64,000 bases of DNA, taken from an uncultured Planctomycetales bacterium. Lineage in GTDB: Bacteria; Omnitrophota; Gorgyraeia; Aquiviventales; Aquiviventaceae. Positions 6,001 to 63,169 of the stretch are shown here, piece by piece. A program made the translations under genes and the position numbers. Every line of letters begins with the position of its first letter. The stretch's first letter is position 1. Location: NCBI GenBank assembly GCA_964373175.1, contig CAYJTP010000002.1, positions 40,402-104,401 on the forward strand, read 5' to 3'. The notes beneath the pieces were generated by a model. That model worked only from the letters and a program-made list of their open reading frames with translations, made no database searches and was not told the origin of the DNA.

Positions 6001-9000
6001 TCGTGATTGGCCCTGAAGCCATCCGCTTCCCTGAGGCGATTCGCATTGAGATCTTCAGGGAGGATCGGCTGGAGCGACACGGCGCCCATGAGCTCAAGCA
6101 CACCGTAGAAGTGAAGGATGGCCTCGGGAGGAACACCGAGACCCAGTTTGGCCCCGCGGCGTCCGGCGAAACCCTGGAGGAGAAATTCCGCAACTTCACA
6201 GCAGAGCGCAAACGCTACCAATTCTATTTCTTCGAAGGCGGGGAGGAGAATCTGGCCAAGTACGGCATCGCAGATAAGAGCTTGGTCACCGTCGTCCTCA
6301 ATGGCCAGGAGTACCTCGCGGCGTTGTCCAACGCCACAGTCCCTCTTGCCAACGGCGATATCGACTACCGGACGCAAAAGGGTGTGAGCATCGAGCCCTT
6401 AGACATCCAGACCTTGGGCAGCACCGAATGGTATGCCCAGTTACGGGCCTGGCTGATGGAACGGAAACTGCAGTTGGACGGAGTCGTCTTGTCCTACGGG
6501 GAGGTAAAGACCAATCGCGGCCATCTCAAGCTCATCCTCACGGGATTCACTAAGAGCCAACTGGATCCGACGACCCACTTTGCGAAGAAAGGCGAACTAC
6601 CCCGAGACGTGACCTTCCTGCGCTACAACGACGAGGCACTCTTGTTCTACCTGGGCATCCCAGAGGGCAGCGTGACCTACGCCTACGATCCAGAGAAGCA
6701 GTTTGACCGTGCCCAATACGGGGAGGCTGATGAGCTTGCCCGAGCCAACGGGTTCAGGATTCAAAACCACCTCATGGTGTATGACGTCCACTTCGCCAAC
6801 AAATCAGAAAACGAGGGGAAGAAGCATCTTCGAGAAATGGGCGTCCGGTTGGACGGGAGTCTCGCCTATCAGGTCGGTCGCGATCGGTTCGATCTGTGGG
6901 GTTTGGATTTCGCACGGCCTGGCCGGGAGTACGACGCGATCGTCTCCTACGACATCCGAGAACTCGCTGAGGTCACGGAGCCGCTTCCGGAAGAGACGAA
7001 CCGGATCACCGACTTAGCACACCTCCGTCTACCTGGCGCAACAGCGGGCCGGAAGATCCAGCACCTGAATATCGTGTTTAAGGATCATCCGGGCTATCTG
7101 ATCACAACCAACACGGTGGCCCAAGAAGATCGCGATTACCTCGATGCTTTCTCGGACCTCATCAACGGTCGGGAAGCCCATTACGACAAGGCCCGTCATC
7201 TCCTTGTCCTGACAGGCGAAGAGCCTACGGTGGTGCTGAACGCCAAAGCAGGCCGGGACGCCAAGCTGTTCTTCCAAGGCGAGGAAGTCATGACGAAACA
7301 AGATCAGTTCACCACCCATGTCCTGCGAGATGATGAAGGAAAGAAACTGAACTTCGTGAAGCGACTCTATGAGGAAAATGTCAAGCGCAACAGCCTCTTC
7401 TCGAAGATCGTCAAAGCGCTTCCCGTCATCGGGGCACTCACGTTCTTGACATCGTTGCAGATGTATGCTGGCGAGCCCGCTGTGCCTGGAGTGGGGGCAA
7501 GCCAACCCAACCTGTGGCTCTATAGCCTTGGGGTGATTGCCGCTTATGTGTTTGTGATCTTGCCAACGTTGATCGCCGGGTTGTATTTCCTCTCGAAGGT
7601 CAACGCCTTGTTCTTGAGACTGGTCGTGAATGTGAACAAACTGATCCAGAAACCGACCAACAGACCACTGGCTCCTGGGGTGAACCCGGCTGACTATCGG
7701 ACCCCTCGGTATCACGAGGTGAAGCGCAAGGTCGGAGCTGTGAGCATCATTCCAGAGCTGATCCTCTACCTGGTGAACAAGGGAGCTGCTGACACCGAGA
7801 TTGAGCTTCAACGAGACTTCTGGAGGGCGGTGATCGATTACCAGATGAATCGCAAGCTCGGGGGGTATCGCTCCAAGAACTCGCTGCTCACCGCTCGTCC
7901 GTATGTCTTGGATATCCATGAGATCTCCAGCTTCTTGAAGCGTGCTCGTCAACAGGGGATCGATCCGATGACAGATGTCCCAGTGAACGGTCAAACACTC
8001 CAAACCGTGATCGAGTCACGGGCATGGGACGAGGCAGTGATCGACCAGGTGACCCAGGCGATTCGAGCCTTCTTGAGGGCTGGGCGACAGCAAGAGAACG
8101 CCGAACGGAAAGCCGCCAGGCTCCGCGGGAAGTTGCTTGAGGAAACCCCCTATCCGGTTGGGGCTTGGAAGTTTTCCTTCAAGATCCTCCCTCGGATGTT
8201 GAACGTCATGTTCCGGACACCCTTCCGAGGGGAAAGGACGCCGAACCTCTGGCAGGCCTCCAAGTTTTTTGGACTCATCATTGCCGAGACGATCCTGTCC
8301 GCAGTCGGGTTAAGTGCGCTGATGTTTGTCTATACCGCTCCTGAAATCTCTGCCTTTCTGCCGATGCTCTTTGGCCTCATCCCATTTACCGCGGTCGTGC
8401 TGCTCAATTTCTGGACTGTGCTGTACCTGAACTATGCAAGCCTGTTTCGGATCGTTCGGGGTCGGTTGCATCTGGATAACGTCTCCACGTGGAGCAGCGC
8501 CCAGCGCGTGTTTCGGCAGCTTCGACGCCAGTTGAAGCCTCAACTGAGAGGAATCTTTGATGTGTTCTACCGGCATGAAATTGACAACCTGCGGTTTGCG
8601 AATGATCAGCCAGGGAGAGGGCCGCTCGTCAGTGAAGACGAGCACACCGCGTTGCTCCATGCCCTTGAGGGAGGCCGGTTAATCAAGCCCCAGACCTTCG
8701 AAGCGACAGAAACCCTCAAGCGATTCCTCAACAAATGGGCAAAGGTCCAGGCAGACTTTAATGCACACCCTGAAGAAATTGAAGCGATCCTGCAAGGCGT
8801 CGAAGATAACCGGGAAGACTACCGGCTCAATGTGATGCACTCAGGCTATGGGGAACTGGTGTGGGTGCATTTCGAGCAGCTGGATGTCTTGGCTGAAGAG
8901 CCTGGAAAAAGAGAGGTGGTCACAAAGTTCCGGAAGCTCATGATGGTGCACCCCGAGGAGTGGACCCTGTTCATTCACGACCGCGTTGGCAATCAGCTGA

Positions 9001-12000
9001 CCAGACAAGACGAACAATTCCTGTCACCTCGTCGCAGAAGCCTCACCGCTGAATCGGCCGCTGCGTATCTCGCCCAACGCTTAGGACAACCGCTCGATGA
9101 TATCAAGGAGCAAATCGAGAAATGGGCCAACTGGCGGTTGGAGAACGCTGGGAAGACTATCATCGCCACGATCTTTAGCCATCTGGAAACCTATAAGGCA
9201 TGGGCAGAGGTCCTAGGGATTCCTGAGACACAGAGGGAGGCGTGGGCACGAGCCAGGGTTAAGGTGGTGGTCAAATATGACGAGTATGGACAGAATCCAG
9301 GCCGAACCGCCGACTGGGATCATGTCAATCAACGCTTTGGCAACATCCTCACCACTGCAAACCAGACGTCCTATGAAGCCAGGGAGGCGGCCATATCGGC
9401 CTGGCATCACGATGATCAGCATGCGGCAATCCTTGTGGGAGCGCCACCTGCCGAGATGAGAGGACATGGAACTAAGGTCGGGGGGTGGGCGTTGGTCATT
9501 CCCTATTTGGATAGCGACCTTGTCTATTTCTTGGATATTGGCCATCGGTTGGCATTCGATAGTGTGATGTTCACGCCGTTCATTTCCCGACAATTTGAGA
9601 CCAATCAGTCCCTGGCCATGGTGTCGCCGGTCTACTACGCGTATGAGGAAAACTACACGTCAACGAGCCGGAGCATGAGCATTGGCCATGAGGTGTGGGA
9701 CCGGGATATCCGCTCTATCAAAGACGTCATCGATAGCGAAGACGACTGGGGCAAGAAGTATGCTCGTGTGAGCGCCTTCGAAGCCGTCAACGCGTTTCTG
9801 CCAGAGTACAACTCTGAGGATACCGCTGGCGGGGTGCGGATGCTCAAGCTTGGCTACGACATCCGCCACACGGAGCTTGTGGATGTTCCGCAGTCTGTGG
9901 AAAAAGTGCACTTCTTGGGACGCTCCTTTGTGCTGCGCTTTGGCTCAACGGTCCCAGAACTCCTGCTCGGCCGTCCAGTGTGGAAGTTTCTCGGGTCACC
10001 CTTTGTCCACTGGACCGCGAAGCTTGGCACATTCATCAGCTTTAGCCACTACCTGCGCATTGCCTTGACGGCGGTGACGATGGTGAGCTTTGTCGTGTTG
10101 AATATGTTCTTCCCCTGGTCCCTCTTTACGCTGCTCCCATTTGTTCCAGTGTTTCTGACGCTCAACTTCTTGGCGAACCAGGCGGTCAATGCTCAAACCG
10201 TGTATCGGTACGAGCAGCGCTATGGGCTCCTCAAGGGTCTGGTGATGTTCTACAAGGATTTCCCGAACCTCTTCATCGATTACGTGACCTACGAGGTCGG
10301 GAACTTCCGACAATTCCTTGAGGGCCTACGCGGGTTTGGAATGTTTACATTCAGTCCAAGGATTAGCAATCTCTACCGCCATACGTTCAAAGCCCTTTGG
10401 AATGAACCGACTGTACGGACAGGGGTCAAGCTGGCGGCATTCCTCACGCCATTTATCCTGCTCATGCCGCTGCATCCAGTGAAGCTCTTGCCCAACCTTG
10501 GCTTTGTCGTGGCGGTCGTCACGTGGTTGGTGGGGCCGTTTATTCGGAATGTCCGTACGCCGTTTTCCGTCAATCCCATTCAATGGGCTAGACAATTGGC
10601 GATGGATGTGTTGCTGGTGCCTTGGGCGTTGTTGCGTGTTTTTGTAGACATAGGAAAAGACCTGAAAGAGAAAGTAAAGAAATGGCACGCAGGCCAACAG
10701 CGGTTGAACGTCATGCTGAGCGTGGCTCCACTTCTTGCCTGGCCGATGCTTCACAGGGCTATGCAAACCTCAGGTGTGACGTGGGGCGATGTGGCGTATT
10801 ACTCGTTAATGGGTATCACAGCTCTGGCAGTGCTGGGATCGATTGCCTCCGCAATTTATGAGATGAGGTACCGAACAATCTATTTTCAGCACTATGGAGA
10901 ATACGAACTAGAATTGAAAGAGAGAGCGGACTCACATCCTCTAGTGAGAATCCTCGTGGGACTTGGTGTAGCTACAGCCGTTCCTCTTTTTATGGTTGCA
11001 GTTGATGGGGTTAACCTGTCGGTCGTCATGATGATCGGCATGATACTGGCTCTCATGTTTGGAATAAGGAACCTAGATACGTCACTGGGAGTGATCTGGC
11101 AAAGTCGTCCTCTCCAGGTTAAAGAGCTGTTCAAGACAACAATGCCATTTCTCTCCGCTGAGTTCAGCGATAAGTTGCTGGAACAGTTGTGGTATGTGAC
11201 GCGACCGTATCGTGACAACAAGGCAGCTCTAGATGCGATTGCAGAAATCATTAGTTCTATGACGGAGCCTGGACGGAAACTCAAACCTGACTACTTTAAA
11301 CGGGGTGGTAAGTACTACACGACTAAATGGTGGAGCCATGGATATGGGGCCTATGAAGAGTACGAGGAGGAAGTAAGTGAAGAGGAAGCCACTCTCCCTG
11401 AGGTAGTAACCATCCCTGATGTAGCTAAAATCACAGAACTACTTAGCCATCCTAATGAACTTAACCGATTAGTGGTGGAACGTCTCAAAACAGTACAACA
11501 GTTAACTTCCAATACAGATAGCTTGAGACATCGTGGTCGCGGTGAAGCGTCTCCTGGGGCGTCTGAGACCGGGAACACGAAGCACCCTGGGAAACGACAC
11601 CAGCGATATCCTGGCAAGGTTGAGCGGGTTGGCTCTGAGGACAAGACCCAGGACGTCCATGTGACTGCGACGGTCAGTCCTGATCGGAACATCGCCTTTG
11701 AGTATCCGCCTGACGCCACGGTGCTAACCCGCTTGACGCCCGAGGAAGAACAGATGGTCCGCCAGAGTCTCCAGAACTGGCTGGCGACGCTCGAGCATGC
11801 GCCGCCCTTGCAGGCGAGGCAGATTCCGCTGTTGGTCACCGACAATCTCGATGAGGTGGCCAGACATCAGGCCGGCAGAATCGAGATCAACGCCGCCATC
11901 CTTCGTGGGCCACCTCCTGGTGGTCCCGAAACCCCCCAAGACCGCCAACTCTTCCTGCACGGTGTGATCTATCACGAAGGCTATCACTTCCTCTCCCCGC

Positions 12001-15000
12001 GCGACTCAGAAGCCCAAGTCCAGCGAGCCACCCTTGACTACTTTAAGACCAGACGAGACATCCTCGTCGCGACGCGCCGGGTTCTCGATGCGAACAATCC
12101 AAACCTCATCACCGGACAGGAGTGGCTTTCCCAGCTCGACGAGCTCGAGCGAACGCTCCAGCTTCAGGATGGTGTCTTGGTCTTCAGCTTGGAGGGAGTC
12201 CTGGTGCCCTACACCCCGCAGCGCAAAGCTCGACTGGTTGACAGTCCTGTCTATCCAGAATTCATGGCGCTCCTCCGCAACGGGTTCCGGATCGTGGTCA
12301 ATGCGGGACACAGCCTTGAGAACGTGCTCCCTCAGATTCTGGATGGCCTGCCCGAGGCTGATAAACCGCTGCTGAGGAACCTGACCATCTATTTCAACCG
12401 CGGCACGGCGAAAGTGACGTTCAGGTCCTCTGGTGAACCAATCTTCGTTGAGTCCTATGCAAAGACGCTCTCGGATACCGACATCCCTAGGCTGCACAAT
12501 ATTCTCACAGAGCGCGTCAACGAGTATTGGAACTGGGTCCTGGAGGATCGTGATCGGTTCGAGCGGATGTTCCCGCGGTTCAGGCTCACCGATCCGCCGA
12601 GTCCGCCGAGGACTGAGTATCGTACATGGCAACCCTCTGCGTCGCAAGACCAAAACATGGGATTGTACAAAATGATGTTGTACCAATGGGGGTTGAAAGC
12701 AATGCCCTCTATTCCCCACGTGACACAAATCACGATTCTCCCATTCCCGTCCATAGAACTCGAAGGCGTTCCGGGAGCGACCGATTGGAGAAAAGCGTTC
12801 TTAACGCGTCTCCTCGAGGACCTCAAGGCTCAGGCTCCGGACTTATTGGAGCGTTACGATTTTATCCCTGGCGGGATCTATTCCATTGATATCGTCCGGA
12901 AAGGGGTGGGTAAAGATACACCGCTCAAAGAGGCCACGGCAGGTGTTGATCCTGGACATGTCCTGGTGGTCGCGAACACGGATCTGCATGGAGAAGGGGA
13001 AGGGGATTTGCCCTTGGGAACCCTTTCCTATCTCCAGCCCTACTCCGTGGGGGACATCAGCGATCTCCCGAAGGGATTCCGCACAGCTGGAATGGGGCTC
13101 TTTGCGACAAAACAGCTTATGCGCGAGGTCCTCAAAAACTATGACTATGCGAAGGCCCATCCGGAGCGTCCACCAACGAATGCGATCGGCACGGTGAAAG
13201 AATTCCTCCGCAAGCGACAACAGGCGATTTATGACATGTCGTGGTCCCCGACGATTGAAGGAGCGGTCCAGCAGTTCAACGCGTGGAGGAACCAACAGGC
13301 GACCCAAGGGAAGTCACCGAGCCGGGAGGACCAAGAAGACTATGTTCGGGGACTCTTTCAGACCTATCAACTCAATCGACTGAAGGGGTCGCCCTGGACG
13401 GACCTTTACGCACGAACACTTGCAGAACGCATGCACGCACAGACAGCCATCCGCACCCTCTTAAAAGAGCTCACCGCGGTCGATAAAGCGGAGCAATTCT
13501 ATGCACTGGTCGACGCAATTGACCAGCGCATGGGACTACGGAACGAACTGAGCAGCCAAGATTTCTGGGAGTACTACAAAGCAGTCGATCCCCGTGTGAT
13601 CCTAGCCCTCCGACGCCTCAAACAGATCACCGGATACGATGAGCATCGGCTTCGGGACGAGGTGATTCGCGAGGTCGCAGCATCTGAGAGGTCTCTGGGG
13701 CATGCGTTGAGTGTGCCACGGGTTTTGGTGAGCTACGCGGGTGATCGGATGGTCTTTCCGGCGATCAAAGCAAGCCCTCACAAGCCGCATGTATCTCCGA
13801 GCCAATACATGTATGTCGGTGGCGGGGGACCGGCGGCATCGTTCCTCATCCAAGGATGGATCCATCAAGCTCGCCAACGTGGAGAGCTGGCTCCAAACGA
13901 GCACGTGACAGATGTCACACTCGATCGCACCAAGCTGGGGCCTGCGGTCATGACGGTGGCCACGATCACGACCACCTTTGATGATGGGGGAGACTCGAGG
14001 AATTTCCTGCTTGGCTTTCTCGAAACCCCTCCCTATGAGACCTACTTCCTCCCGCCGGGAGACATCTCCGTCATGCTGGGCTTTGCGACGGATGATCCTG
14101 CGAAGCTCTGGTTTCTGCACTATGCCGACAAGAAAGAAGGACGGATCAGCGGTCGTGCAATTGCTCCGATCTGGCTCAAACGCCTCAAGATGATTCATGA
14201 AAAAATTGAGAATGGCCTATTGCCCCGTCCACCGGATTGGCTGGCCTTCGTCAACGCCGCGATGACGCTGGGTGATCTGTTGGATCGCGAGCTGGTGGAG
14301 CGGAACGTGGTGCATCCATCTCGATCGGAAGCGCCTCCAGCTCAAGCACGAGGGAGGGAGCTTCTGTTCAAAGACGGCAGCAGCCAGAATTTCTTCACGG
14401 AGGCTGCTGCGGGCTTAGACACCGGGGCGCTGATCCCTGGCGATGAACACCTGATCCGCGGGTTGTTCGATCCCTCGCGCTTGGATATCGACCATCTCAA
14501 GACTCTGCTGGGCATCCGCGATGCCCACGTCTACCCGGTGAGCCCCGATGAAGCTACGCTCGTGGCCCTTGATGAACAGGGCCACACGGTGGATCAAGAC
14601 ATGCACGTGACCCTTGGGGGCCGTATCTATCCAGTCCACCCTGCCGAGGAACAGACCGGCATTAGTGACAAGGCGCATGTTGGACGAATCCACCAGGTCA
14701 TCTTTCGAAAGCGGGTACCTAAAAAAGAGGAGAAAACGAACGTCATTTCTTATTCCTATCGCCAATTGAGACCTGAAGAGATACCAAAAGCGACCAAGGA
14801 GGAACTAGAGGGTATTGCGCGAGTTCTACAGGTGATTGTCTCCGGGCTGGGGAGTTCCTTCACGAGCATTCTTCCTGACCTGATGGTCCAAGGGGTGGTG
14901 GAGGCGATCATGGAGCGGCAAGACATCCCCCGCATCTATGTCGCCAAGATCAAGAAAGACCTCGAGACCTCCCAGCTTGATGTAATCGGGAAGACCTTGC

Positions 15001-18000
15001 GGGCGATCCCGCTCCGTGAGCAAATCGCCGTGATGGAACGATCCCTCGAAGGCGCACTGGGCAAGCCGGTCCGGTTTGAGCGGCTCTTCAGCCATGTAGT
15101 CCTTCCCCGTCTTTCGCAGAAAACCATTGACCGGCTGGCTGAGCTGGACAAGCTCACGGACCTTGAGGTCGAAAAGCTGCTCGAAGGGGGACCCCAGATC
15201 AGCAAGTATGTTCGAGGAGCCCAACTCATCAGCCAGGAAGACCTCGAGTTCCTCCAATCCCGCGGGATTCAAATTGTCTGGGTTGACGAATCGGACATTG
15301 AACTGCTCGGTGAGAAGAGGCGAGATGCGTGGTATCTGGGACTCGCCTTGAAGGCGTTACAGACAAAGACACCTCTCGAAAATGAGGATCAGCTGCTCTC
15401 CGTAGCCGACAAGACGAAAATTGTCGTTGAACACTCGACAGGTCAGGTCTTCGTGGATGGGAAAGAAGTGACCAAGGCACTTGGGGACCGAAAGGTTACC
15501 GAAGCAGCTCAGGTGGTTTCTCGCCACCCGAAGGTCCGTCACTACGTCAATCAACACTTGTTGGCTGAGGGAACGCTCACGGAGATTGAAGCGTTGGTCG
15601 ACCACATGGACCAGAAACCTCCCTACTATAAGACGCAGCCCCTCCTCAGGACGATCGATGAGATTGTCGCGTCGTACAGACCTTCCCAGCAGGCTGATAT
15701 CATCACGATTGACGGCCCTGCGGGAACCGGCAAGAGCACGGTAGCGCGCAAACTCGCTAAGCGCTTGGGTTGGCGCTACCTCGATAGCGGGGCGCTGTAT
15801 CGAGCGCTCACCCTCAAGGCGTTGGAGGAAAAGATTAAGTTGGATGATGAGATAGGGCTGTCCGACCTGGCCTGGGAAACCCAGATTGAACTCTCCGGAG
15901 ATCAGGTCTTGTTGGATGGAAAGGACGTGACAAAGGCGATTCGGAGTCAACAGGTGACCAGGGCCGTCTCGCTGGTTGCGCAACATCCAGGGGTCCGGCA
16001 ATACATCACCTGGCTGCAGCGCCGCCTGGCCAGGTCGGGAAAGACGATCTTAGAGGGCCGAGATACCGGAACCGTGGTGATGCCGGGAGCGATGCATAAG
16101 GTCTATCTCGATGCGCCGCTCAACGTACGTGCCGAGCGGCGTCAACAGGAACTCGCTTCCCGAAAGATCACGTCCAGGCTCGAGAAGGTCCGTCAGGGCA
16201 TCGAGAAGCGCGATCAGCGTGATCAGGGACGCGCGATCGCGCCACTGCGTCCTGCGCCAGGGGCCCACCTCATTGACACGGATCAGATGACCAGTGACCA
16301 GGTGGTTGACCAGATTCTCGCTGGAAAAGGAGCCGCCTACGGAGCCCTCCTGATCGATGCTGATGTGACCCTGCTACGCTCGGCCGATAAGACAGAGACG
16401 TTGAGCACCAGCCCGGCCCGAGACGCCTTGCTCAAGGTGCTTCAGCAGGGGGTGCGCGTGGCGATCATGACAGGCAACAGTGCGACACAAGCCCTGGCCC
16501 GCCTGATCGAGACCCCCGCACAGGGAGAGCAGCCAGCTCTCGTCCACATCCCACCGGAACTTCGTCACCTGGTCACTGTATACGCCAACGGGGGCTTACA
16601 GAAATTCACCTTTGACCAGGCTGGCGTTCCGCACGAAGAGGAAGCGTACCGGTCGGGGAAAGAGATTCCAGCGACCGATCGACAACGGATCCTTAAATCC
16701 ATCCAGCCGCTGCTAGACTGGTATCGCAACCGCGTTCAGAGTCTGGGTGGGCGGTTTATTAACGCACAACCCGACTTCCTCCTCCAAGGCAGAACCCTTA
16801 GGATTCCTGAGATCGTTCTCGAAGGAGAAACATCGGGTGAAGGGGTGCTGAAAATTGCCCTGATGTTCCTTTCCGCTCATCGGGCCATGGAGCTGAAAGA
16901 CTCCAAAGCCCCTGAGACCTTTCCGGATCTCCGGCAGGAGTTCCTTGAGAAGCTGTTGGCCATGCTGCCAGATGACCTGAAGGGCCGCTACAGCTTTAGC
17001 GAAGGTGGTCTCAGCAGCATCGATATCAAGCGCAAGGGGCTGGATAAATTGGTGGATGTCCGAGACTACTTGACCTCAACCAACCTTGCGCCTGAAGATG
17101 CCATCTACTTCGGAGATGAAGTCTATCCGGGAGGAAACGACTACCCTGTGACGACGATTCCAGGGCTGTTGGTGATTGGAGTCAATCCCGATCAGTCGAC
17201 CGTCGCAACTCCCGCCATCCCGGGTGGCGCAGGTGTCATGGGGACCACGTGGTGGTTAGAGAACCTTGATCAGTTGATTACCTTTCATCCCACGAGGAAG
17301 AAGTTGGTCAATCACCCGATCGCGCCCACGCCGATTCAACACCTACGTCTCCAAGCACAAGGACCGTGGCGGGAGCGAGAGACGTCGGCAGGCGTCGCCC
17401 GCGAACTCCTCACCTCTGTGGATGGGGGTCGTCTCATCGCCACGACCTATTCGCTCACTGAGCACTCAGCGCGCGATCAGGAGGCGCCTCAAGTCGCAAA
17501 AGGCCCCAACCAACTTGCGAGAAATGTGCTGGTGGATGGGGTCGTATTTCCCCTGGTCAATGACCAAGGCTGGACTCTTGATACCGCGTTAGCCCAGGAC
17601 CTGACCTCAGAGCAGCAGCCGCTCCTCCATCCAGCTGAGGCGGCCAAGGGTGCTCCCGGGACACGCTTCATCCTCAATCTCCTTTACTACCTCACGGTGC
17701 GGCTGTATGAACGGTATAACCAACTCCGGAAAGATCGACCGGCCGAGCAGCTGACTCGCCAAAACTTCTATCTCGATCACTACAAACCCTTGCACGGTGA
17801 GGAACGGTTCCCCTTGTACAACAAGGGCTATGTTGGCATCGGTAAGGACGGTAAGCTCATCTTCGGCCAGCGAACGCTCCTTGGAGGCAAGCTCTGGTTC
17901 GGTTCGCGGGAGCTGTCCTGGACCGAGCGAGATATCAACCCCACTGCTTGGAGCTTAGCCGGTCATCCGGTCATCGTTTACACGCCGAGTTACGCCGATG

Positions 18001-21000
18001 CCGCTTCGTCTTTCACTTCGCAGGTCACCGGCAAGCCCGGTGATCCCAATTTCAGCGTCACTGTCGGGCGAGCACGGTACAACCTCCTCGTCATCGATAA
18101 CCGCATCGAAGCGGTGATCCACGGGGAGGTATTCCTGCCCTATGTGGGGGTGGTGCTCTCGGTTGATCAAGCGACCTTCGATCGGGTGTTCCGTGATCAG
18201 GTGGAGCAGGTGGATGTTCAAGGGGAACGCCGCGAGGTCTACCGCCCACGCGTCAGCTATCGCTTCCAGCTCGATCCGCCGAAAGCGTTTGAAGGTGATT
18301 GGAGCCACGTGCAGTGGCTGATGGGAGGCGGGTACCTGTTGGTCGCGCACGGCGAGAACCTCGTGGCCACACCAGAAAAGACGCAGGAGAGCCTGAGAGC
18401 TCAGGGCTGGCTCAACCCACTGTCACGCCAGTCACTGGAAACGCCACTGGACGTGCGTGGTCCTGAGCAACGAGATCCTACCGTGGTGATCGGCCAGACG
18501 AAAGATGGGCAACTGTTCGTGGTCACCTTCAGCGGACGGACCATCCACAGCAGCGGCGTGACCTTCCCTGAGGCCGTGCGCATTCTTGAGGAAGAGTTTG
18601 GCGCTGGGAATCTCGAGTGGGTCTTGAATCTCGATAGCGGATCCTCAGTGTCCTTGGGTGCGGTGGATGAAGAGGGTCGCTACCATCTCCTGAATTATCC
18701 TGGACCAGGTCCTGATACCTTGGCGGGAGAGGTGAGGCCGGTCAATAGTCTCGGGTTCATCACGACCCGCCAAGTTCCCAGACGTCTTGGGCAACTTCAG
18801 ACACTCGCCCATACCGCCGCGCCCTTCCAGCCCATTACGGAATGGAACCAGACATTTGAGAAGTTCAGGCCTGGCGATCCCGGGACCGACACAGTCACCG
18901 TCGGGCTTGATCTGGGTTCAGGGAGAGGCCGACACCTCTTCCAGATCACGGTGCCGAGAACCGACGATCCTCCCGTCCAAGCCGCGATCATCCGCTACCT
19001 GGCGATCCAGATCTATAACCGCTTGGGAACGTTTGGTCCTGAGCGGGTGTTGATCGATGCGCCTGAGGCGCTCTACAACCAACTTGTCGCCTTCTTAGCG
19101 CAAGGCGGCTCAGCGACCTCGTTTGGACGCATCCAGGCGTATCTAGCCCTAGTGAACCAGAAGCCGTTTACCATCCTGCCAGCCGATCGCACGACCATCG
19201 AGGCGCTCCCGGCTGAGCCTGTCGGTCTGGCTGTGCCGGATATCAATCCGCGCCGAGGCCAGGTCGTAGCGATTGACATCGGAGGGACCGATGTCAAAGT
19301 GGTCGCCATGCAGGACGGTGTAGTGGTCTATCAGCACACAGCAAACTGGGTTCCCGAGCAGTTCACCGACCCTGAGCAACACGTTGAACTCCTTGAGCGT
19401 TTGATCCGACAGGCCCAAGCAGAGGGCAAGCTCCCAGCATTGGATGCCATTGGCATCAGCTGGAACTCAGCTGTGCGCGACGGCCGCATTGCGGCTTCCA
19501 CCAAGGCGACCAAGGGATTGACCGAGGAGCAGTTCCGCAACGTGATCAGTCCGATCCGCGAGCGCTTTGAACGCGACTTCAAGATTCCTGTGGCTATCGC
19601 GAATGACGGGGATGCTGGGGCGCTGTGGGCAGCGGTAGAGCTTGGCGTGAACAATGCGCTGGCCCTCAGCATGGGAACCAACCTCGCCTCTGGCTATGTG
19701 GACCCCCAGGGGGACCTTGCTCCCTACTTGACCGAGATGACCAACGTCATCATCGACCTTGGGACAGAAGCCGCTCCCCATTCCTTTACGAAGGTCCCAG
19801 GGGTCTCGCAGCAATACCTGTCTCAACAACCTGCGTTCCGCTTGGCGCGTCAAGCTGGCATCAGCCTCGATGCGATGGCGCATGACGCGGCTCGGTTAGA
19901 GTACGTGCAATCGCTCCTTGACCAGAACGACCCACAGGCCGTTTCGATTTTCAAACAGATCGGTCGATACTTAGCGACGCACATCGCAGAGACCCAGCAG
20001 TACCTTGGAATGACCAACGTCATCCTCTTTGGTCGTGTGGTGCGCGGTCGTGCTGGTAACCTGATTGTGGAGGAAGCCCAACGCGTCCTGCGGGACATGG
20101 ACCCGGTCCTGGCTGATGCGGTGACCATCCGCCTTGCGACCGAGGTCCACTATGGGCAGGCGATCGGGGCAGGGTATCTGGCCAGTCGCCATTTCCAGCA
20201 GCTTAATTCCACTGATGAAGTCGAGATTGCCCGTCGGCGATTCGATGAACGGTGGGTAGCAGCTCAACAAAAACAGGCGCGTGGATTTACAGCCGAGGAT
20301 GTGCACAACGCCTACTACGATGCGCAAAGCAAGCAGTGGAAGTCAATCTACGGAATCAGCCCCGTCGTCTGGATAGACCCAGGCCTTATGAAACAAGTCC
20401 AGAGCGCGTTGAAGGCTAAACTCTCACCAGCGCTTCAATCAAAGCTTGTCTGGTTCACTCCATCCACGAGCCACGTCACCATCGCTTACCTTGGGCTTTG
20501 GAGAACGACGCCCCTCGATAAGGAAACAGTTCAAACGTATCAAGCGCTGTCCGACCAAATCATTCCAAAACTCATTCGGAGACCCCTCAGCTTTTCAGCA
20601 GAAGGCGTTGGTATGATGCTAAACGGCGCCCTGTTTGTTCCCATGATTCCCACTGAGGGATCGCTCGCGATCCTCGACCAGGTGGACGCACGCTATCTTG
20701 AAGAGGTTCCTGGTCTCGAACATTTCCCGAGCGTCGTTCCCCATGTAACGCTTGCGTATCTTGTTAGCGAATTAACCCCAGAAGAGATGCAACAGCTACT
20801 CAAGGCCATCGAAGAGCTTCGGGGAATCCAATGGGGAGCCTATCGGGCTGACGAGATCGTGCTCTATGCTTACGATGACTTGTCGCTTGAACGTGGGCGC
20901 GTGTTGAACCGGTACGATCTGACGGCGCCCGCGAGCCAAGCCAAATCCCCAGCGCCGATGGCGATCCTGACGGGTCTCTTGGCTGGACTGTGGCTGGGCC

Positions 21001-24000
21001 TAACTCAGGGCGCTGGGACTGATCTTCCAGCCTGGGCCGACGTAGTCCTGGGTGGCGGTGCCGCGTTCTTCGGACTCTGGACCCTCATAGAGATCGGGAG
21101 ATACATTCGCGGCAAGATCAAGGCTAGCAAGCTAACCGACGAGCAGCTTGAAGCCAACTTCAGGGCATTGGTGGAAACGACCCTCAGCGAAGACTGGGTC
21201 AAGGCGCTTTGCGATAACTGTCTGAAGTCTGCGACCGACCTTCCGGCTCGCCAGAAACTCAAGCCCCTCCAGTCCGCCAAACGGATTGGGACGAACGTCT
21301 ATCTTGATCTGCGACTTGCGGCTTCACCAAAAGAATTCTCTCGGGTAGTCCGCCACGAGTTGACGCATCTCAAGAGCCATCCGGCTCACGCTCCCCCACG
21401 TCTCCTTGGGACCGTCTGGTACTACAGCGTTGGGTACCTCCTCCGAGAGCTCAAAGCCCACCTGGCCGAATTCCGCTGGCCCCATCCTGCCAAGCCTCCT
21501 CAATCAAATCCTCGTACTCTCAGAGCCACTGAGCAATATGCTCGCCTGCCCCAAGAAGATTTTATTAGCCCAAACGAGAAAGCGCTTCCTCACATCGCGG
21601 ATGGCAATGCCCTTGAGCGGTTCGAGCAAGCCCTGAATGCGCCCGGGGCTTTTGAGCGTTTAGGAGTTCCACTTGGTCTCGCCTCGGCCATTGCTCACCG
21701 ACTCCTCACCCGAAGCGAGCAACGCTTGCGCTGGCTATTGGGACAATGGGCGTCATTACCACCGGCCAGGATTTATGAAGTGTTCAAAGACGATCTGCTG
21801 CGGGGTGAGGAAGGGTTGCGGACGTGGATGGATGACCCGGATCCAACCACCGTGGTTGGGGTTGAACGAATCATCCAGAACGTTCTGGAAAGTCAGCCCG
21901 AGGTGATGCGGCGAGGTTTCTTCCTCAAATATAGCACGGCTGAGCGACTCATCCGGCAACACCCGCCAGTTCGGATGATTCAAGAGGTGCTGCAGGACCT
22001 TTCGCCTGAGGCACGGACTGTGGATGAGCTCCTGCGTCGAGTAGATTCCTTGACCGTCAGTAGCGCGGCGCGGTTTAGCGAAGAGCAAGCCTGGCGCGAG
22101 CGCTTTGCGACATTGCTGAACGAGCTGGCGCCTGACGATTTTGAGCACCGCGGTCTGCGGGTTGTCGTTCTTGATCCAAAGGTGTGGGGGAAGGTGGCCG
22201 ACCATCTTCGAGAAGACAAAGCCTACATTCACTACGGCAAACTGGTGGGGATCCTCTTGGGCACTCCTCTGCAGGAGCGTCATCCGTATGCCATTCTTCG
22301 AGGTGTGTTGAAGGTGCTCAGCTACATCAAAGAGGTTGAGCTGTTCAACCGGATGTGGGAAGTCGCGAGCGAGCAGAGCCGCCACGCCCCTGGTTCATTT
22401 GGGCCTCGCATTCGGAAGGCGTTCGCCGGGTATCCGTTATCGGATCAGCCGACGCTCGGACTTGTACTGGAAGGCGCCACACAGCGCTACGTTCACCAGC
22501 AATTGTGGAAACTGGCGCAAGAGATTCCCGCCTTGACCGCCTTGGCCCAAACGTATGACACCTTGCATATGGCGAACCAGGAAGCCGTTAGCCTGAACGC
22601 CTGGACCCATGTCTCTCAAGCCGTCCGAGGACTGCAGCAACCGTTGCTGCGAGAAGCCCGGCAGATCGTCCTCTACAACTTTTTCGCGAAATTCTTAGGT
22701 TCTGATCACCAGCTCGATCAGTGGATTGTCGAGCACACGGGGGTTGATGAGACGCTGCCGACCACCACGACCGTGAAGGCAGTTCCCAACTACCCCTTGA
22801 CCGCCTCGACTGTGAGCGGCTGGCAAATGCCTCTTGTTCACCCCTCGCGCCAGGGGGCGATGACCATTGATCTTGACCCTGATGTCCCGGTTCCTGATGC
22901 CGGAACGCAACTACTGATCCAAGCGGTTGATACGTGGCTGCGACGGCAGGGGCCGAAGGCCAAAGACGCCTCGCTGCTTGGGATCGCGGCCATGGCTGGG
23001 ACGGTCCCCAAACTGTTTGCCGACGACGTCTCGCGAGTCGTCGTGATCGCACGCAACCCCTACGCCATGGCGCTGACCCGAAAGAACTCGGCTGACAAAC
23101 CTAACGTGACCGTTCTGGTTGGAAACCTCTTTGAGGCGCTGAGAAGCGTTGACCCCGCGACTCGACAGGAGCGGCGAGAGCAGTTCGACTTGATCGTCGG
23201 GCAGGTCCCTACTGTTCCGACGCCTGTTGATATCCCCATCGATCCCAGCGATCCTGCAGTCCTGTCCTACGAAGGGGGAGGGAAAGGCCGGGAGGTGTTG
23301 GACCGGCTGATCCAGGAAGCCTCCCAGTATCTCAAGCCGGGTGGAACGCTCTTGCTTGTCCAGCCCGAGTACGTCGATGCGGGAAAAGGAGAACACGCTA
23401 TCGAGTTGCTCAAGCAACAGGGTTTCTCCGCCCGCGTCATCCAGAGGGTAGGTACAGAGATTGTTGAGGGATCGTTGCTCTCCAGCCGCCTGGAATGGAT
23501 TCAGCAAGAGTTGGCTTATACGTTTGAGCGAGTCCGACAACCATGGTGGCGAAACGTGCTGTCTCGCTTTCTAGGTGGCCCTCGACCTCACGCGCCGTAC
23601 CTCAATCGCCTCATAGTGATTGAGGCCACCAAACCTTCCCAAGCTGGGTCTCTCACAGATAGGGCAGGGGGATTGCCCATCTTTATGCAATCTGGGTCAT
23701 ACCCACCGTTGCTCCTTGGTGCTGGAAGCATCGGGGGCATTGGGGCGTCAGGTTTCTTCCACGAACCTGTCCTTGCGCTCCTCGGTCTTGGCTTAGACCT
23801 GTTGGGTGGGTTGGTGGCGCTTTTCTGGCCGATCCTCTTTGCGATGACCCTACGAGACGAGAAGACTGAGCAGTTACCCGAGGCCGCGCGGGCGGCTTTT
23901 GCAGAAGCGCTGGACGCGATCGATGTCACGTCCGGCTTGGGCTTGGAGCGGCTGGCGTCGAAGATCCAGACCGAACCGCTGGATGAGATGCTGCGGCGCC

Positions 24001-27000: not shown

Positions 27001-30000
27001 CGAGCTTAGAGGAGATTCGATCCCGCCCAGGAGGTCTTTTGGTGCGCGTGGAGAATGAACCGCTTGATGAACAGGTGGTGCTAACCGACCGTTTGCAATT
27101 CCGCCAGGGGGACATGGCAAGGGACTTGTACACCGACCTAGCGGGTCGTGTGAACGTTATCCGGCATGCGAATGTATTGCATTATCTCAGCGAGGAGGCG
27201 TTCCAGCACACGATCGAAAACGTGTTTCGCTACGCTCAAGCTCGGCCCCAGGGACTGTTGTACCATGTCGGGAAAGCAGACATCAGTGATCCCGGCTTCC
27301 TTGATCAACTGATCTTTGATATCGGTGGGCAGTCGGCACGTGATTGGAGGTTAGTGTACGCTGGCTACCTCGGCTCAGGCTCAGCAAAGGAGCACAGCCC
27401 AGAATTTGCGCCAGAGCAGCTCATTGCCAAAGAGGAGGCCATTTCGAAACGGGTGCTCGCGATCCATCAAAAAGCCCTTGAACTTTCGGCGCATCTGCAT
27501 GGTGGGCAACTTGACGAGGCACTCGATCGCTTTGGCCGACTGCGCCAAGAGGCGCAAGACCAGCTCATGCAGTTCCTGTTTTCAGCGCATCCCCGAACCA
27601 TTTCTGAAGAGCTGACGCGTACAATCCTCCAGGACATCTTGCTGATCAGCCCATGGACACGGCATAGTGAATACACTGGCAGTTATTACCGTGATCAACG
27701 GGTCATGGTTCCACACGAGCTGGGGTGGCGGTTTGTGGAGTTACCACGAGACCTCAACGACCTCCTCGACGAACTTCTTCAGCTATTAACCACTCGTGCC
27801 TTTCAAACTCAGGGTCAGACCCCCGACAGTCACAGGACGGAACTGCAACACGCGCTCTTCAACGCCCTCACCGACATTGAGCTTAAGGCACAACCTGTCG
27901 AACCTCGCCAGGCTCCAGTCTATCGAGTGCCTGTTGGTAAGCTCAGCGTCCAACGGCTCCACGAAGCCGCAGCTTCGGTGCGCGCGCAGGTCACCGAAAA
28001 AGAACCGGTGGGGTTTGTTGAGCTACGGCCTGAGCACCTGGCCGACCTTGAGACAGCGCTGGCCAATTCTGACCTCACGCAGGCGCTTGAGGAACTTCGC
28101 GATGATCAACAGGTGAGGGTGCTGCTGGTTGCCAGCGCACAGGACCTTCACACTGACCCGCTTCACCGGTTGCACCGGCGCTTGGGTGAGCTGGGTATCC
28201 AGATTGCGCCCCCCATTGCTGACATCGAGCGGTTCGCGGATGACTGGCCGCCGGAGTGGACGCCGGAAGGACTTTCCCCTGAAGACTTGGCCGATGGCGA
28301 GGCGTACCACCGCGCGCTGTATCACGATGGGGATGTCAACCGACCAGTGAGCTGGCATGAGGAAGAAAGTCGCAAGCTCATCGAGCGGGCCTTCCGCTAC
28401 ATCAAGGATGGTGACGTCGTGGTGGACTACGGCACCGGAACTGGCGGCTCAGCCATCGAACTCCTCAAGGCGCTGGATGAGCGTGGGATCAGGGTTACGT
28501 TGGTCTGTGTGGATCCGCTGGCCTCGTGGTTTAGCAAGGCCTGGCAGTTACTCCACCATCGCGCCGATGTCCAGTTCTACTCCCTGTGGGATCCAACGAC
28601 GCGCAAGATGCGTCCACTCACTGAAATCCTGGGTTCCCACAAAGCCAACGTGATCGTCTCGGGCAGTACCTTCCACCTCATCCCCCAGAAAGCCTTTGGC
28701 CGAGCAATGCAAGACCTTGCGGATTCGCTGGTGGATGGCGGCGCGCTCCTTTGGAACAGCGGAGACATCGCCCTTGAGGGGGGCAAGCGTCCAGAGGACG
28801 CGGTACTCCTTCACGATCCCTATCGATCCATGCGGAAGGTGGCGATAGAACGGGTGAACACCGAGGGGGAATTCGCGACGCTGCGAGCCTCGCTCACGGA
28901 GGATGAACGCAAGGCCGCTGAAACGCGTGCCAATCGGATCTTTCCTCCGCAACCTCTGACAATCGATCAGATCCGGCAAGCCTTGACCGCAGCCGGGTTT
29001 GTCGACGGACGAATCACCCATGAACGGATCGAGGTGCTGGATGAGGATTCGGTTCAGTTCATCTCAACGGTCCCTCGGCTCCTGGACTTCCTTAGCGAGG
29101 TCCAAGATCCCAGTGTTCGTCAGGGGGTTATCAAGCACGTCATGCGCGAACAGGTGCTGCCCGAATTTCACAAGCAGCCAGCCGGCACCATCGAGGGGAT
29201 TCAGACATTCTGGACGTTCGGGGAGTTCATCAAGCCCGTTCTTGCGCCAACCAAACCTGAAACCGGTTCACCCGATCGGTTTGCCAAGGGGCAACCGGTA
29301 CCAAGTACCGAGGGGTCAGGTTCCGCCGCGCCGCCAACTGAGACAGCCACCATCGACTGGACCAATTCTCCGGTGCTCACTCAGCAGGAGCTGGCTGACC
29401 GCCTGAATGAGCCGGTCCACAACGTCCTGAACCTGCCAGGCTTCGCAGGCACGTTCAGGGTGGGAGACTTGTTGGTTCGTTCCCCGCAGGAGCGGGAGGG
29501 TTTTGAGATTGTTCAGCTCGCCAGCGGCAAACTCGTGCTGCGCTACAACCAGACGATCGTCGGGGGCAAGGCGGCTGAGCCGTCCGACATCGACGCGTTG
29601 TGGGAGGCACTTCGGGCCAAGGATCATAAGCGGACGCAGGCACTCATCAAGCAGCTTCACAAGCAACCGGAGACCTGGGTGTGGAAGGTGCACAAGCGCA
29701 CGGTGACCAAGATATCCGAGCGCATTGGCAAGCTGGGCCAGGAGCTTGGTCTTGACGAGCAGCACGCCGATGCGTTGGTTGTGACTGCTTCAGAGCTTAT
29801 GAATAACATCGCGCGTCACGCTGAGAAAGGGGTCGTGGTACTGCGTAAGGTCACGGTTGACGGGAGGGTGGGTGTTGAGGTGTTGGCGCTCGACCGAGGC
29901 CGAGGATTGCCTGAAGCGAGGAAGTTGGAAATTCTCAAAGGGAGGTTGCCGCTTGATTGGCAACGTCAAACAGGTCGAGGGTACGCGATCATCACGAATT

Positions 30001-33000
30001 ACAAGAACGTCCAGCACCTCATCGACGACTTGCAGGTCGACTCTCGGCCAGGCGAAGGTGTGAAGGTCACTCTCCGAACCCGGCTGCCTGTTGACACCAC
30101 AAGCAGGGCAGAACAGCAGTTCTCCGAATATCCACTGCAGGGAGGCGCCACCCTGCGGACGCGTCTTGCCGTGGAAGAGGTGAAACGCTTGCGCACCGGG
30201 CACGTGGTGGTCGCCGATGCCGCGAATCAGTTGAGGCTGGTGATTGAGTTGCCTAGCCTGCTTGGGAGCGTGGGGACATCCCTCGCACTCGCCAATGAGC
30301 TCCTTGGGACAGATCTTGTTCAAGAGATCGCTGACCGAGCAGCCAGGGATCCCAATCGAATCGTGACGGTTGTGGACTGGGGTTGTGGCAATGGGAGTAC
30401 GTTGAGGGAGCTTGCCACAGCCCTGCACCAACGCGGGATCACCAACGTCAGGCTGGTGGGATTTGCCAATATGTACTTTGATGAGTGGCAGGAGGCCCCC
30501 TCGAACGTCACATTCGTGCTCGATACGGCTGATCATCTTCTCAACTATTTCTCAGAGGGAGAAGTCGATCTGATCTACAGTCTCAGTGGACTGAAATACT
30601 TAGCCTGGCGAGCCTATCTCAAGCATCTGAAACAGCTTCGCTCCAGCCTCCAGCCAGACGGTGTCATCCTCGATGCTCCTAGGAGGCTCATGCTCTTCTA
30701 TCAATTCGGCCTTCCCATGTTCAAGGTGAGTAAGGTTGGTGTTGGTCGTCTTGGTGCTCGACTGACTCCAAAACCCACCTCTGTCTTCAAGGAAGGCGTG
30801 TTCAGTGATGGCCCACTGTCAAATCCTCCGCTGCGGAGATCTTTTGAGGGCACCTATTCCAGACCGGATCAGCCGCTGACCTTCGGCGCAGACTTCGGGT
30901 TTGGCCAGTTTGTTGAGCGCCTCAGGGACTTGTGGCGGCGGCTCATGCCGCGGCTGGCCAGGCGAACGACCCCAACCCAGCTGACGTGGCAGGCCCTGCA
31001 GCCGTTTGAGCGGATCTTGCTGGTCGATGATCGAGCGATGGTCTTGGCTTCGCTGTTGGCGTTCCTCAGAGCGCGCATGCCGACTGCCTCGTTTGACGTG
31101 GCCCGCGACCGGATGGAAGCGATCGCAACACTCACCGCTTCTCAACAAGCTGGCACACCCTTCGACCTGGTGGTCACGGACTTGAAGATGGGAGACGATC
31201 TGCTCACGATGCCTGTTGAACAGAAGCAGGGCGGCAAGCTCATCGCAGACATCCGGAGGAGCGCGTCGCTCGGTCGTCAGCCACGCATCGTCGTCTTGGC
31301 GGCTGGTGCGGCGAGCGAGGCGACGACGTTGCAACGCCTTGGAGCCGATGCGGTCGTGGATAAGCTTAGCGATGGATTCCTGGATCAGCTGTGGGAAACG
31401 ATCACCCACCTGCCCGATGAGGCCCTGGCGCGGGACACGGAGGAATGGCTGCGTCAGCATGCGACGGACAAACGCATCGACCCAGAACTCATCCGGCTGC
31501 AACGGGAGTTCCTGGAGCGCCTTCGCATCTTGCGAGAAATCAACAAGGAGAGGCAGCAGCCTGGAAGCGGCAACATCCACAAGATCGCCCTCGTGAGCAA
31601 ATTGCAAGGCCAGGCGAAGAAAGGGGCTGCGCTGTTGAGAATGGCCCAGCACGAGGGGATCGACTTCATGTACGCGCTTGGCGATGTGATTGGTCGTGGC
31701 GAGAAAGCCCACCTGCTGTTACGGACGATCCGGGCCTGGATGCAGCAACACAGGCCTCCTCACCTCGAGCTCCTCATCGGGGCGAATGAAGCGAAATTCA
31801 TGGCAGCGATGATGGGCCATCCGAAGTTTTCATCCCGCTTCCTCGACCCCATCGGGGGCGGACGAGCCCTGCTTAAAGAGGTGGGGGCCACGGAAGAGAC
31901 CTTCCGGTTCAATCGACAGCTCGTGGAGGATCTTCGCTTCATCCAAGACCATTTCCTGCTCTTTGACTATGACCTCGTGCATGGGGTGGGCATGGGATTT
32001 AGCTATCCGATCAATGACGACGGTCAACTGGCCGTGAACTTCTTCGGAGAAACAGGACCGCAAGCCCTGGCGAAGATCGAGGCGAGTATCCGGGCTTCGA
32101 GCAGTCTCAAAGGGTCTGTCCTGAACCACCTGCTGGCACTCCTGTTTGCCTTGGAAGAGAAACAGGCCGCTTCGCTGCCGGTGAAAGCCAAGGAACTGAT
32201 CGACGGGAAGCACACGACGATCGACGAGCTGCTTGAACACTTCAAAGTGCTCGGTCAAGGACATGAGCTGCTGCGATTTGTCCTGACAGAACCGAAAGAA
32301 GGAACACATCTTGCGCTCTTTGGGGATCGGGTCATCGGCATCATGGATGGAGCAGCTCATGAAGCGGACAGCGTCTTAGTGCTGGGGGGCGAAGGGATCC
32401 GTTGGTGGACGTGGAACGCCAAGCACGGGCGGTACGACCCGGGCAACGAGGTGCTTGAGGGCGCGACCTACCTCAACCAATTGGAAGGCCTGCACAAGGG
32501 CTGGATTGAGACCCATCGAACAGAAATCGCGTGGCGAAAGGAAGCCGCTGAGCTAGCTCAGAGCTCGGGGTGGGTCGATGAGCTGATCCGAAGGGTCAGG
32601 GACTTCCTCTCAGACCGCCTGCGCGCCTTCCGCTATGACCGGCGCAGCGACTACTATGTGAGCCGATTCATGAACCGGATGTATCAGGAAGGCTGGTACA
32701 TCGGGCGGGATGGCATCCTGCAACAAGGCATATCCAAGCATGAGCCGTCTGAGGCGTACCGGCAGCTCTTCAAAGCCGCGGAAATCCAAGCCCTTCATGG
32801 GAATATCATCCTGAATCGCAAGACGGGTGAGGCCGCCTTCCTCTTTGCGGATGAGAAAACAAATCCAGGACAACCGGATCTGTCCTATGTGACCTATCTG
32901 CTCCTGAAGAAGAACCCCGACCTCGTCTTGGTGGCTGATGACATCGCCCGGGCGTTTACACTGGGAGGGAAACTCTACGGAGGAACGCTGCCCTTAGTGC

Positions 33001-63113: not shown

Positions 63114-63169
63114 GGGGTCAGACCCTGTGCGGGAATTTTGTCAGTTTTCGTGCGAAGGGTCTGACCCTG
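63114..63169. repeat. REP-like palindromic element ~50 nt after the giant ORF stop
   Basis: The arms gggtcagaccc (63115-63125) and gggtctgaccc (63158-63168) form a stem of about 12 bp with a ~30-nt loop. No U-tract follows. It is the same family as 36423-36480, in the opposite orientation. Confidence 0.75.

Follow-up and report, generated by a model that had tools for sequence, protein, structure and literature searches.

Giant multi-enzyme proteins of the Omnitrophota have been described under two names. The "Archaeovorins" combine glycosyltransferases, methyltransferases, HAD, HATPase and TPR domains, and most of them also carry a divergent SecA DEAD-like domain; their sugar-phosphate enzymes are, puzzlingly, predicted to lie outside, and degradation of the prey cell wall has been proposed (West-Roberts et al. 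2023, bioRxiv 10.1101/2023.11.21.568195). The "class 1 multi-enzyme metabolic clusters" are membrane-associated in 94% of cases, and have a sugar-metabolism co-occurrence module that includes ROK, PGM/PMM, GT1 and receiver domains, as well as a regulatory module that includes methyltransferase, HATPase and HAD (Nielsen & Lui 2026, bioRxiv 10.64898/2026.06.07.730766). Giants of both kinds are encoded by open reading frames (ORFs) tens of thousands of codons long, and have many membrane segments and many enzyme Pfams; as to their function, the ideas proposed have degradation of the prey cell wall at one extreme and multi-enzyme clusters in the cytoplasm at the other. A concrete handle on this question is offered by a block of enzyme modules at positions 12170–20200 of a 64,000-nucleotide stretch of DNA from an uncultured bacterium of the Omnitrophota (assembly GCA_964373175.1, contig CAYJTP010000002.1, positions 40,402 to 104,401; the whole stretch is called the window here). 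The block combines a cassette of modules, which recurs in the same order in related proteins, with a set of further enzymes that have been found between its parts only at this locus, and its content points to amino-sugar (N-acetylglucosamine, GlcNAc) chemistry.

The giant open reading frame

The whole block lies within a single ORF on the plus strand (nt 21–63065), which fills nearly the whole window and runs for 21,014 codons without a stop; the other two frames of the same strand have 724 and 873 stops. The 5' end of the gene is beyond the window: no stop closes the frame ahead of nt 21, and the protein is therefore longer than what the window holds. Residues are numbered here so that aa n begins at nt 21+3(n-1), which places the block at aa 4050–6727. 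All features described below are on the plus strand unless stated otherwise, and ORFs on the reverse strand across the block interval gave no match to any protein family. The order GC1>GC2<GC3 in the three codon positions is even along the giant ORF and across all modules of the block, so that no part of the block looks recently imported.

More than 15 distinct enzyme families tile the giant ORF, none of them dominant, and a crude Kyte-Doolittle scan finds about 38 hydrophobic segments. Methyltransferases, HATPase_c, receiver, HAD, ROK, GT group 1 and TPR domains are common to this ORF and to the Archaeovorin and class 1 giants, and the length of 21,014 aa, with the 5' end open, agrees with the size that defines the class (a single ORF of at least 10,000–30,000 aa). 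The window protein belongs to this published Omnitrophota class of giant multi-enzyme proteins and is not a new kind of system. Nowhere in the 21,014 aa was a SecA DEAD-like domain detected; the protein's N-terminal part is outside the window. NUDIX, GT5 and glycoside-hydrolase domains were not seen in the window either. CofD/YvcK, Cmk and NAGPA, three of the families found in the block, are not mentioned in the main texts of the two preprints on giant proteins (2H, a fourth, was not searched for there, and the supplements were not covered).

A sequence-only reading of the window had taken carbohydrate and envelope chemistry to be the most coherent theme of the protein. The coherence holds up, in that the modules concerned co-occur as a cassette in relatives, and the GT4 and transaldolase domains that the same reading had placed elsewhere in the giant ORF are indeed found outside the block. 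The superlative does not: the carbohydrate theme has a second one beside it, and the methyltransferase, histidine-kinase ATPase, receiver and helix-turn-helix (HTH) modules are equally prominent. This second theme occupies nt 27021–39770 (aa ~9450–12620), where several S-adenosylmethionine (SAM) methyltransferases, a HATPase_c domain, two to three receiver domains and tandem HTH motifs are found.

A conserved cassette with an insertion

Six modules had been named in the block by the sequence-only reading, and sequence searches with Pfam, NCBIfam and PDB recovered all six in the claimed order, the first of the two HAD modules by paralogy to the second. These are the domain searches that the reading had proposed as a check, and they reassigned none of the modules to an unrelated family; the limits of the block, 12170 and 20200, fall where the first HAD module starts and where the kinase unit ends. 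Two parts had escaped notice, namely a partial copy of Cmk at aa 5101–5195 and a 2H phosphoesterase at aa 6734–6965. An exhaustive HMMER search with aa 5770–6969 (1,200 aa) returned 889 homologs, of which 182 have E<=1e-30; this places the block far beyond chance. By these homologs the segment resolves into three independent units: the NAGPA-type glycosidase, the kinase and the 2H phosphoesterase.

The modules of the window were mapped onto long homologs (P numbers) and onto 43 fetched loci (L numbers), the locus search using a 3-sequence alignment of the kinase unit as query. The same parts are colinear in some 15 sequences of Omnitrophota and PVC-group assemblies: a membrane module, an HAD-like module, a helical linker (gapA), a YvcK-like module, a short segment (postCofD) and the kinase unit. 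Carriers of the cassette are P0124, P0139, P0146, L001, L002, L005, L006, L008, L009 and L043/L044, and in L008 the order is exactly that of the window. There are variants in which the kinase unit comes first, in which the HAD-YvcK pair is duplicated, or in which a 2H module follows (L001 and L043). The joint and ordered recurrence of the HAD, YvcK-like and kinase modules in many related loci bears out the co-occurrence that the sequence-only reading had suggested looking for. In the window, gapA (aa 4341–4590, nt 13041–13790) lies between the HAD-like and YvcK-like modules; it has no Pfam match and is weakly conserved in L001, L002, L006, L009 and P0146. The postCofD segment (aa 5011–5100, nt 15051–15320) is conserved, and in relatives runs straight into the kinase unit.

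The nearest homologs come from Omnitrophota or PVC-group assemblies and are only 35–50% identical, with a GC content of 36–49% as against 58% for the window. Among the carriers are Ca. Aceula meridiana, Omnitrophica RIFCSPHIGHO2_02_FULL_51_18 and "Planctomycetia" TPA bins, and NCBI names for the proteins include "YvcK family protein" and "ROK family protein [Candidatus Omnitrophota]". In several relatives the frame is open over the entire 7–21 kb that was fetched, and these are therefore giant genes as well. When the NAGPA-ROK-2H segment was used for exact-peptide scans of genome and metagenome collections, no relative came up.

None of the cassette loci mapped has a Cmk, a canonical HAD like the second one of the block, or a NAGPA unit between the YvcK-like module and the kinase unit, and aa 5101–6250 of the window therefore reads as an insertion. 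The leader that precedes the NAGPA unit here (gapB, aa 5726–5880, nt 17196–17660) goes with that unit in relatives as well (P0121, L040), and in L003, L040 and P0121 both are linked to the cassette. Other nucleotide-kinase-like domains are seen in two homologs: P0182 has a PRK/uridine kinase and a Cytidylate_kin2 domain alongside cassette modules, and P0213 has two stretches that look like guanylate-kinase-type P-loop sequences, as judged from the sequence only.

The modules of the cassette

The first HAD-like module (HAD #1; aa 4050–4340, nt 12168–13040) has no Pfam match even at E<=1, and is recognised by its paralogy to the second one, HAD #2 (25.7% identity, E 2e-11). A joint profile of the two matches the HAD-IIB alpha-phosphoglucomutase 4bnd (1.8e-5) and the phosphomannomutase 2i54. 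In HAD #1 the DxDGTL that the family has as motif I has become FSLEGVL, with Ser in place of the nucleophile Asp, and in motif II Thr is replaced by Ala. The nucleophile is absent from 9 of 10 relatives too, the cassette HAD of which reads FGGPDGVL. Since it is missing family-wide, HAD #1 is a conserved pseudo-enzyme and not a product of recent decay. In contrast to HAD-IIB enzymes, HAD #1 and its cassette orthologs lack both the nucleophile Asp and the GD of motif IV, and the phospho-aspartyl mechanism of HAD enzymes is therefore impossible for them. The description of the first module as sugar-phosphatase-like, given in the sequence-only reading, needs the correction that the module is a pseudo-enzyme.

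The CofD/YvcK-like module (aa 4591–5010, nt 13791–15050) matches PF01933 with 58.4 bits (cutoff 30). Among the NCBIfam models it fits YvcK (TIGR01826) best, at 52.1 bits and so under the cutoff of 196 for that model, and the UPF0052 entries 2o2z/2hzb of the PDB are matched at 1e-3. Its motifs are VGGGGPAAS, FDDGGDS and SGLGSSFTSILPDL, and with YvcK/GlmR (UPF0052, CofD-related; known from B. subtilis, and as CuvA in mycobacteria) it has the family motifs GGGG, DDGG and G-GS-TS in common. YvcK/GlmR is a soluble protein of ~320 aa, whereas the module of the window sits in a giant chain and has a family-specific insertion of ~100 aa.

The kinase unit (aa 6270–6730, nt 18828–20210) matches PF00480 with 38.3 bits (cutoff 22.9) and keeps 21 of 21 family-invariant residues, in the motifs DIGGTDVK, NDGDAGA, E..N, H and LSQ. 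The ASKHA motifs DxGGT and NDGD are common to it and to the ROK sugar kinases NagK, NanK and GlcK. These have a CxCGxxGC/H zinc motif, which the kinase unit lacks: there is no Cys in aa 6270–6730, and the alignment of its family is also without the motif. In addition, it has an N-terminal extension of ~140 aa, and its score against the NCBIfam model of ROK glucokinase (24.8) is far under the cutoff of 260. The "ROK-like sugar kinase" of the sequence-only reading is therefore a member of the ROK/ASKHA kinase family, but as a zinc-less unit of ~450 aa not a typical ROK protein.

The 2H phosphoesterase (aa 6734–6965, nt 20220–20915) comes directly after the kinase unit and past the end that had been given for the block. 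Both HxT motifs are present (SHVTIAY and PHVTLAY). The module stays under the Pfam thresholds (PF13563 23–24 bits vs 27; PF02834 19.3 vs 23.3), and is 52% identical to the database protein P0129.

The inserted modules

The insertion begins with a partial duplicate of Cmk (aa 5101–5195, nt 15321–15605), which is 43% identical to aa 5258–5346 and corresponds to the NMP-binding insert only, without the P-loop, the CMP-binding Arg or the GRD motif. About 30 residues further on follows an intact (d)CMP kinase, Cmk itself (aa 5226–5434, nt 15696–16322). It matches PF02224 with 264 bits, TIGR00017 with 250.6 (equivalog cutoff 135.55) and PDB entry 3r8c at 4e-42, and the P-loop, CMP-binding, GRD and lid elements are kept (GPAGTGKST, DSGALYR, EGRDTGT, RAERR, RDQRDQGR).

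Only 8 residues separate Cmk from HAD #2 (aa 5443–5725, nt 16347–17195), a HAD-IIB module of the Cof/phosphomannomutase (PMM) type. It matches PF08282 with 28.3 bits (cutoff 20.9) and PMM with 21.7, and its N-terminus matches the Cof subfamily in NCBIfam. All four catalytic motifs are kept (IDADVTL, MTGNS, KRKG, FGDEVYPGGND), as in the HAD-IIB phosphomannomutases, alpha-phosphoglucomutases and Cof phosphatases, and 4bnd, PMM1 and PMM2 are among its matches. When Cmk and HAD #2 together were used to query the protein database, the matches were ordinary Cmk proteins at up to 51% identity, of which none was giant and none spanned HAD #2. The best of them, at 40–51% identity, are bifunctional fusions (PanC-Cmk, AroA-Cmk, Cmk-Der, Cmk-PlsC), in which a full Cmk is also joined to another enzyme. 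Here, by contrast, Cmk is joined to a HAD of the PMM/Cof type, and both form part of a giant chain.

The last inserted module is the NAGPA-type phosphodiester glycosidase unit (aa 5881–6250, nt 17661–18770), with 37.6–39.9 bits against PF09992 (cutoff 25) over profile positions 56–156 of 169. In human NAGPA an invariant DGGGS motif holds the catalytic Asp (PMC13474241). The window has NLDSGSS and the relatives NLDGGSS; the window thus retains the catalytic Asp, and also the Ser of the motif, but has a Ser in place of its first Gly. The PF09992 match and the catalytic Asp of the DGGGS motif are thus common to this unit, to the NAGPA "uncovering enzyme" and to the bacterial DUF2233 glycosidases. 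It differs from them in being the C-terminal ~370 aa of a distinct family of ~800 aa, and in having no signal peptide of its own.

The upstream membrane module

The cassette is preceded by a conserved polytopic membrane module (aa 2450–3700, nt 7368–11120), here and always in the relatives. Its best matches, in L005, L008 and L043, have 39–44% identity and 670–832 bits, and the motifs LDxGHR, SEDT, QSxEK and RFG are invariant. A GT48-like module that the sequence-only reading had counted towards the carbohydrate theme could not be recovered: Pfam finds no GT48 or glucan-synthase domain anywhere in the giant ORF, the membrane module included. Searches of the PDB with phmmer and with a 7-sequence profile gave no match for the membrane module, and Pfam was empty for all of its members. 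A GT2 identity found no support either (hhalign against E. coli BcsA, probability 0.1), and an AlphaFold2 model from a 2-sequence alignment was unusable, at a pLDDT of 34. At the level of motifs the module resembles processive glycan synthases (SEDT...HTE...QSVEK...LRFG), a likeness for which no identity is claimed.

A probable link to amino sugars

Stand-alone homologs of the kinase unit (440–480 aa) occur in Clostridia, Verrucomicrobiota and Polyangiaceae. At 24 of 30 such loci a gene for nagA, nagB, a PIG-L/BshB-type deacetylase or a NahK-like protein lies within 3 kb, mostly on the same strand. The NahK-like gene was named from its sequence and has no NCBIfam match, and one locus (L035) is counted on this gene alone. 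The Clostridia loci are largely close kin, so that the 24 are not 24 independent events; at least three phyla agree. As for the other modules, YvcK/GlmR binds UDP-GlcNAc, and NAGPA acts on GlcNAc-1-phosphate diesters. Because of these three lines, the neighbours of the kinase homologs, the UDP-GlcNAc link of YvcK and the chemistry of NAGPA, the predicted focus of the block can be narrowed from generic carbohydrate chemistry to that of GlcNAc and nucleotide sugars.

The backbone of the cassette is formed by the nucleophile-less HAD, the helical linker, the YvcK/CofD-like module, a short linker and the ~450-aa kinase unit, often followed by 2H; between the YvcK-like module and the kinase unit, the insertion adds a vestigial Cmk fragment, an intact Cmk, a PMM/Cof-type HAD and a NAGPA-type glycosidase. 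The division of labour that we propose is as follows. The NAGPA-type domain would release GlcNAc from GlcNAc-1-phosphate diesters, the kinase unit would phosphorylate an amino sugar at the expense of ATP, and the intact HAD #2 would interconvert or dephosphorylate sugar phosphates. Binding of UDP-GlcNAc or sugar phosphates, in a sensing or positioning role, may fall to the YvcK-like domain and probably to the dead HAD #1 as well, and Cmk and the 2H phosphoesterase might recycle nucleotide by-products such as cytidine monophosphate (CMP) and cyclic phosphates.

The side of the membrane

There is no hydrophobic segment in aa 3683–6976, and therefore all modules of the block are in one compartment. 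The block is closed by a weakly hydrophobic hairpin (aa 6977–7026, nt 20949–21098) with K/R-rich flanks, of charge +4 and +6, around a short acidic loop, and the number of predicted membrane segments between the block and the stretch with the HATPase, receiver and methyltransferase modules is even. The charge pattern of the hairpin, this even parity, and the ATP that Cmk and the kinase unit need favour the cytoplasmic side, so that the cytoplasm of the producing cell is the somewhat more probable location. The topology check suggested by the sequence-only reading puts all modules in a shared compartment, with a leaning towards the cytoplasm on the choice between cytoplasmic and exposed.

Sequences that bear on the opposite view are found among the relatives. 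Five proteins of ~2,100–2,700 aa, P0145, P0146 (L009), P0151, P0160 (L010) and P0161, each begin with a Sec signal peptide and have an N-terminal domain in common; L009 and L010 are from Ca. Aceula meridiana. The HAD-YvcK-kinase cassette is present in P0146, P0160 and P0161, whereas P0151 has the kinase unit only and P0145 has HAD and NAGPA. None of the five has another membrane segment, and in these proteins the cassette parts are therefore exported. The C-terminal motif GGID(L/M)N...IIN(V/L/I)TP...LP(L/M)LGL is common to P0145, P0146, P0160 and P0161 and absent in P0151; it may be a sorting signal. Cys exclusion is typical of exported proteins, and the giant ORF is nearly free of Cys, with 9 residues observed where ~277 are expected from the position-specific base composition (aa 7064/7067, 8869/8872, 9496, 10122, 14935, 19406 and 19843; the first four are arranged as two CxxC pairs). 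The Cys content of relatives varies, from 0 in the 7,142 aa of L003 to 0.2–0.7% in others, including L006 and L008 with 0.45–0.7%.

Weighing the explanations

The reading that we prefer, and to which we would give an even chance of being correct, is that the block is a genuine in-frame segment of a giant polytopic multi-enzyme membrane protein of the Omnitrophota type, and works as a membrane-tethered amino-sugar and nucleotide-sugar array on the cytoplasmic face. Several observations weigh against it. Sec signal peptides are present on P0146/L009, P0160/L010 and P0161, and also on P0145 and P0151; the giant ORF avoids Cys; NAGPA-family enzymes characterised to date act outside the cytoplasm, in luminal or extracytoplasmic locations (PMC13474241); and the parity of hydrophobic segments from membrane module to cassette differs between the window and L005/L008. 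The amino-sugar assignment leans on the neighbours of homologs that are 30–33% identical. The order and content of modules differ among relatives, and the Cmk insertion is at no other locus, so that the inserted modules may lack functional coupling to the cassette. The points about sidedness would be explained if the block were exported to the periplasm, the cell surface or a host- or prey-facing zone, processing envelope glycans or host-derived ATP, nucleotides and sugars there. An extracellular coat has been proposed in the literature, with the sugar-metabolism domains predicted to be outside, and a signal peptide and membrane segments occur together in 39% of catalogued giants. Yet Cmk and the ASKHA kinase require ATP, the hairpin follows a positive-inside pattern and has even parity with the HATPase/receiver stretch, and the avoidance of Cys follows lineage and not cassette, as L006 and L008 show. 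Nor is there a lytic glycoside hydrolase, transglycosylase or peptidase within or adjoining the block; with this and with the charges of the hairpin, which favour the cytoplasmic side for the block, the suggestion that it might attack a cell envelope finds no support in the block, and a role in building or servicing envelope sugar precursors is plausible. Export of the block of the window is, all told, rather unlikely. A bolder variant would put the cassette on the surface or in a zone of contact with host or prey, where the kinases, phosphatase and glycosidase would use host ATP, nucleotides and GlcNAc glycans (an "exo-metabolon"). Under it, the exclusion of Cys, the cytoplasmic type of enzymology and the Sec signal peptides of cassette-only relatives would fit together; we regard it as unlikely. 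Should the cassette indeed be exported with intact ATP-dependent kinases, the host would be exploited in a surprising way; a cytoplasmic block would be a well-behaved case of enzyme tethering.

A different kind of explanation is that the block grew by evolutionary accretion, as a collection of captured or duplicated enzyme genes, many of them now pseudo-enzymes or spacers, that share no pathway, and that the role of the protein lies elsewhere, for example as a scaffold or in adhesion. The dead HAD #1, the truncated copy of Cmk, the Cmk, HAD #2 and NAGPA insertion that is found only at the locus in the window, and the different module orders of relatives all fit this, as does the fact that 80% of such giants are sequence singletons in published clustering. 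But the order of pseudo-HAD, YvcK-like and kinase modules is held across distant species at 23–36% identity, invariant catalytic residues are kept, Cmk exceeds its equivalog cutoff, and 63 kb without a stop and with uniform codon statistics speak for purifying selection, which makes pure accretion quite improbable. The quality of Cmk as a full equivalog could also be taken as a sign that the giant is a polyprotein precursor, cleaved into separate enzymes, so that the block would supply a housekeeping Cmk, sugar kinase and phosphatase. Post-translational cleavage of these giants has been suggested in the literature, and the phylum has reduced genomes; against this, no protease domain is near the block and Cmk and HAD #2 are just 8 residues apart, and we consider cleavage very improbable. 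Finally, an artefact, in which mis-assembly or sequencing errors had joined neighbouring genes in one frame, is hardly credible: the 21,014 codons have no stop where the other frames have 700–900, and independent assemblies of relatives show similar multi-kb open frames with the same modules. The recurrence of an ordered cassette tied to a membrane module is of practical value, because the cassette occurs both in giants and in signal-peptide proteins of ~2,100 aa, which provide small expressible units for the study of substrate and sidedness.

Other features of the window

Further along the giant ORF there is an internal repeat in the TPR region (aa 15734–15941 vs 16304–16510; 49% identity over 209 aa), and a hydrophobic segment is repeated at aa 17132–17162 and 17416–17445 (77% identical). 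A defence-system reading of the window was dropped, as PADLOC gave only a weak P-loop match.

The palindromic 11-mer GGGTCWGACCC has 6 copies in the window where 0.06 are expected. Four of these form pairs, at 36428–36480 and 63115–63167, both with a spacing of 42 nt, and single sites are found at 27812 and 35570. One of the pairs forms a hairpin ~50 nt past the stop of the giant ORF and is a candidate terminator. The other is in frame within the giant ORF and encodes AQGQTP...AQGLTP. The element looks like a REP/MITE-like sequence, of which one copy is embedded in coding sequence.

The giant gene is followed by a partial ORF on the plus strand (~63360–64000), which has a signal peptide at its start and shows homology to the N-terminal end of P0246 (E 9e-12). 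Since P0246, of 2,105 aa, has the kinase unit as well, the next gene may encode another large cassette protein.

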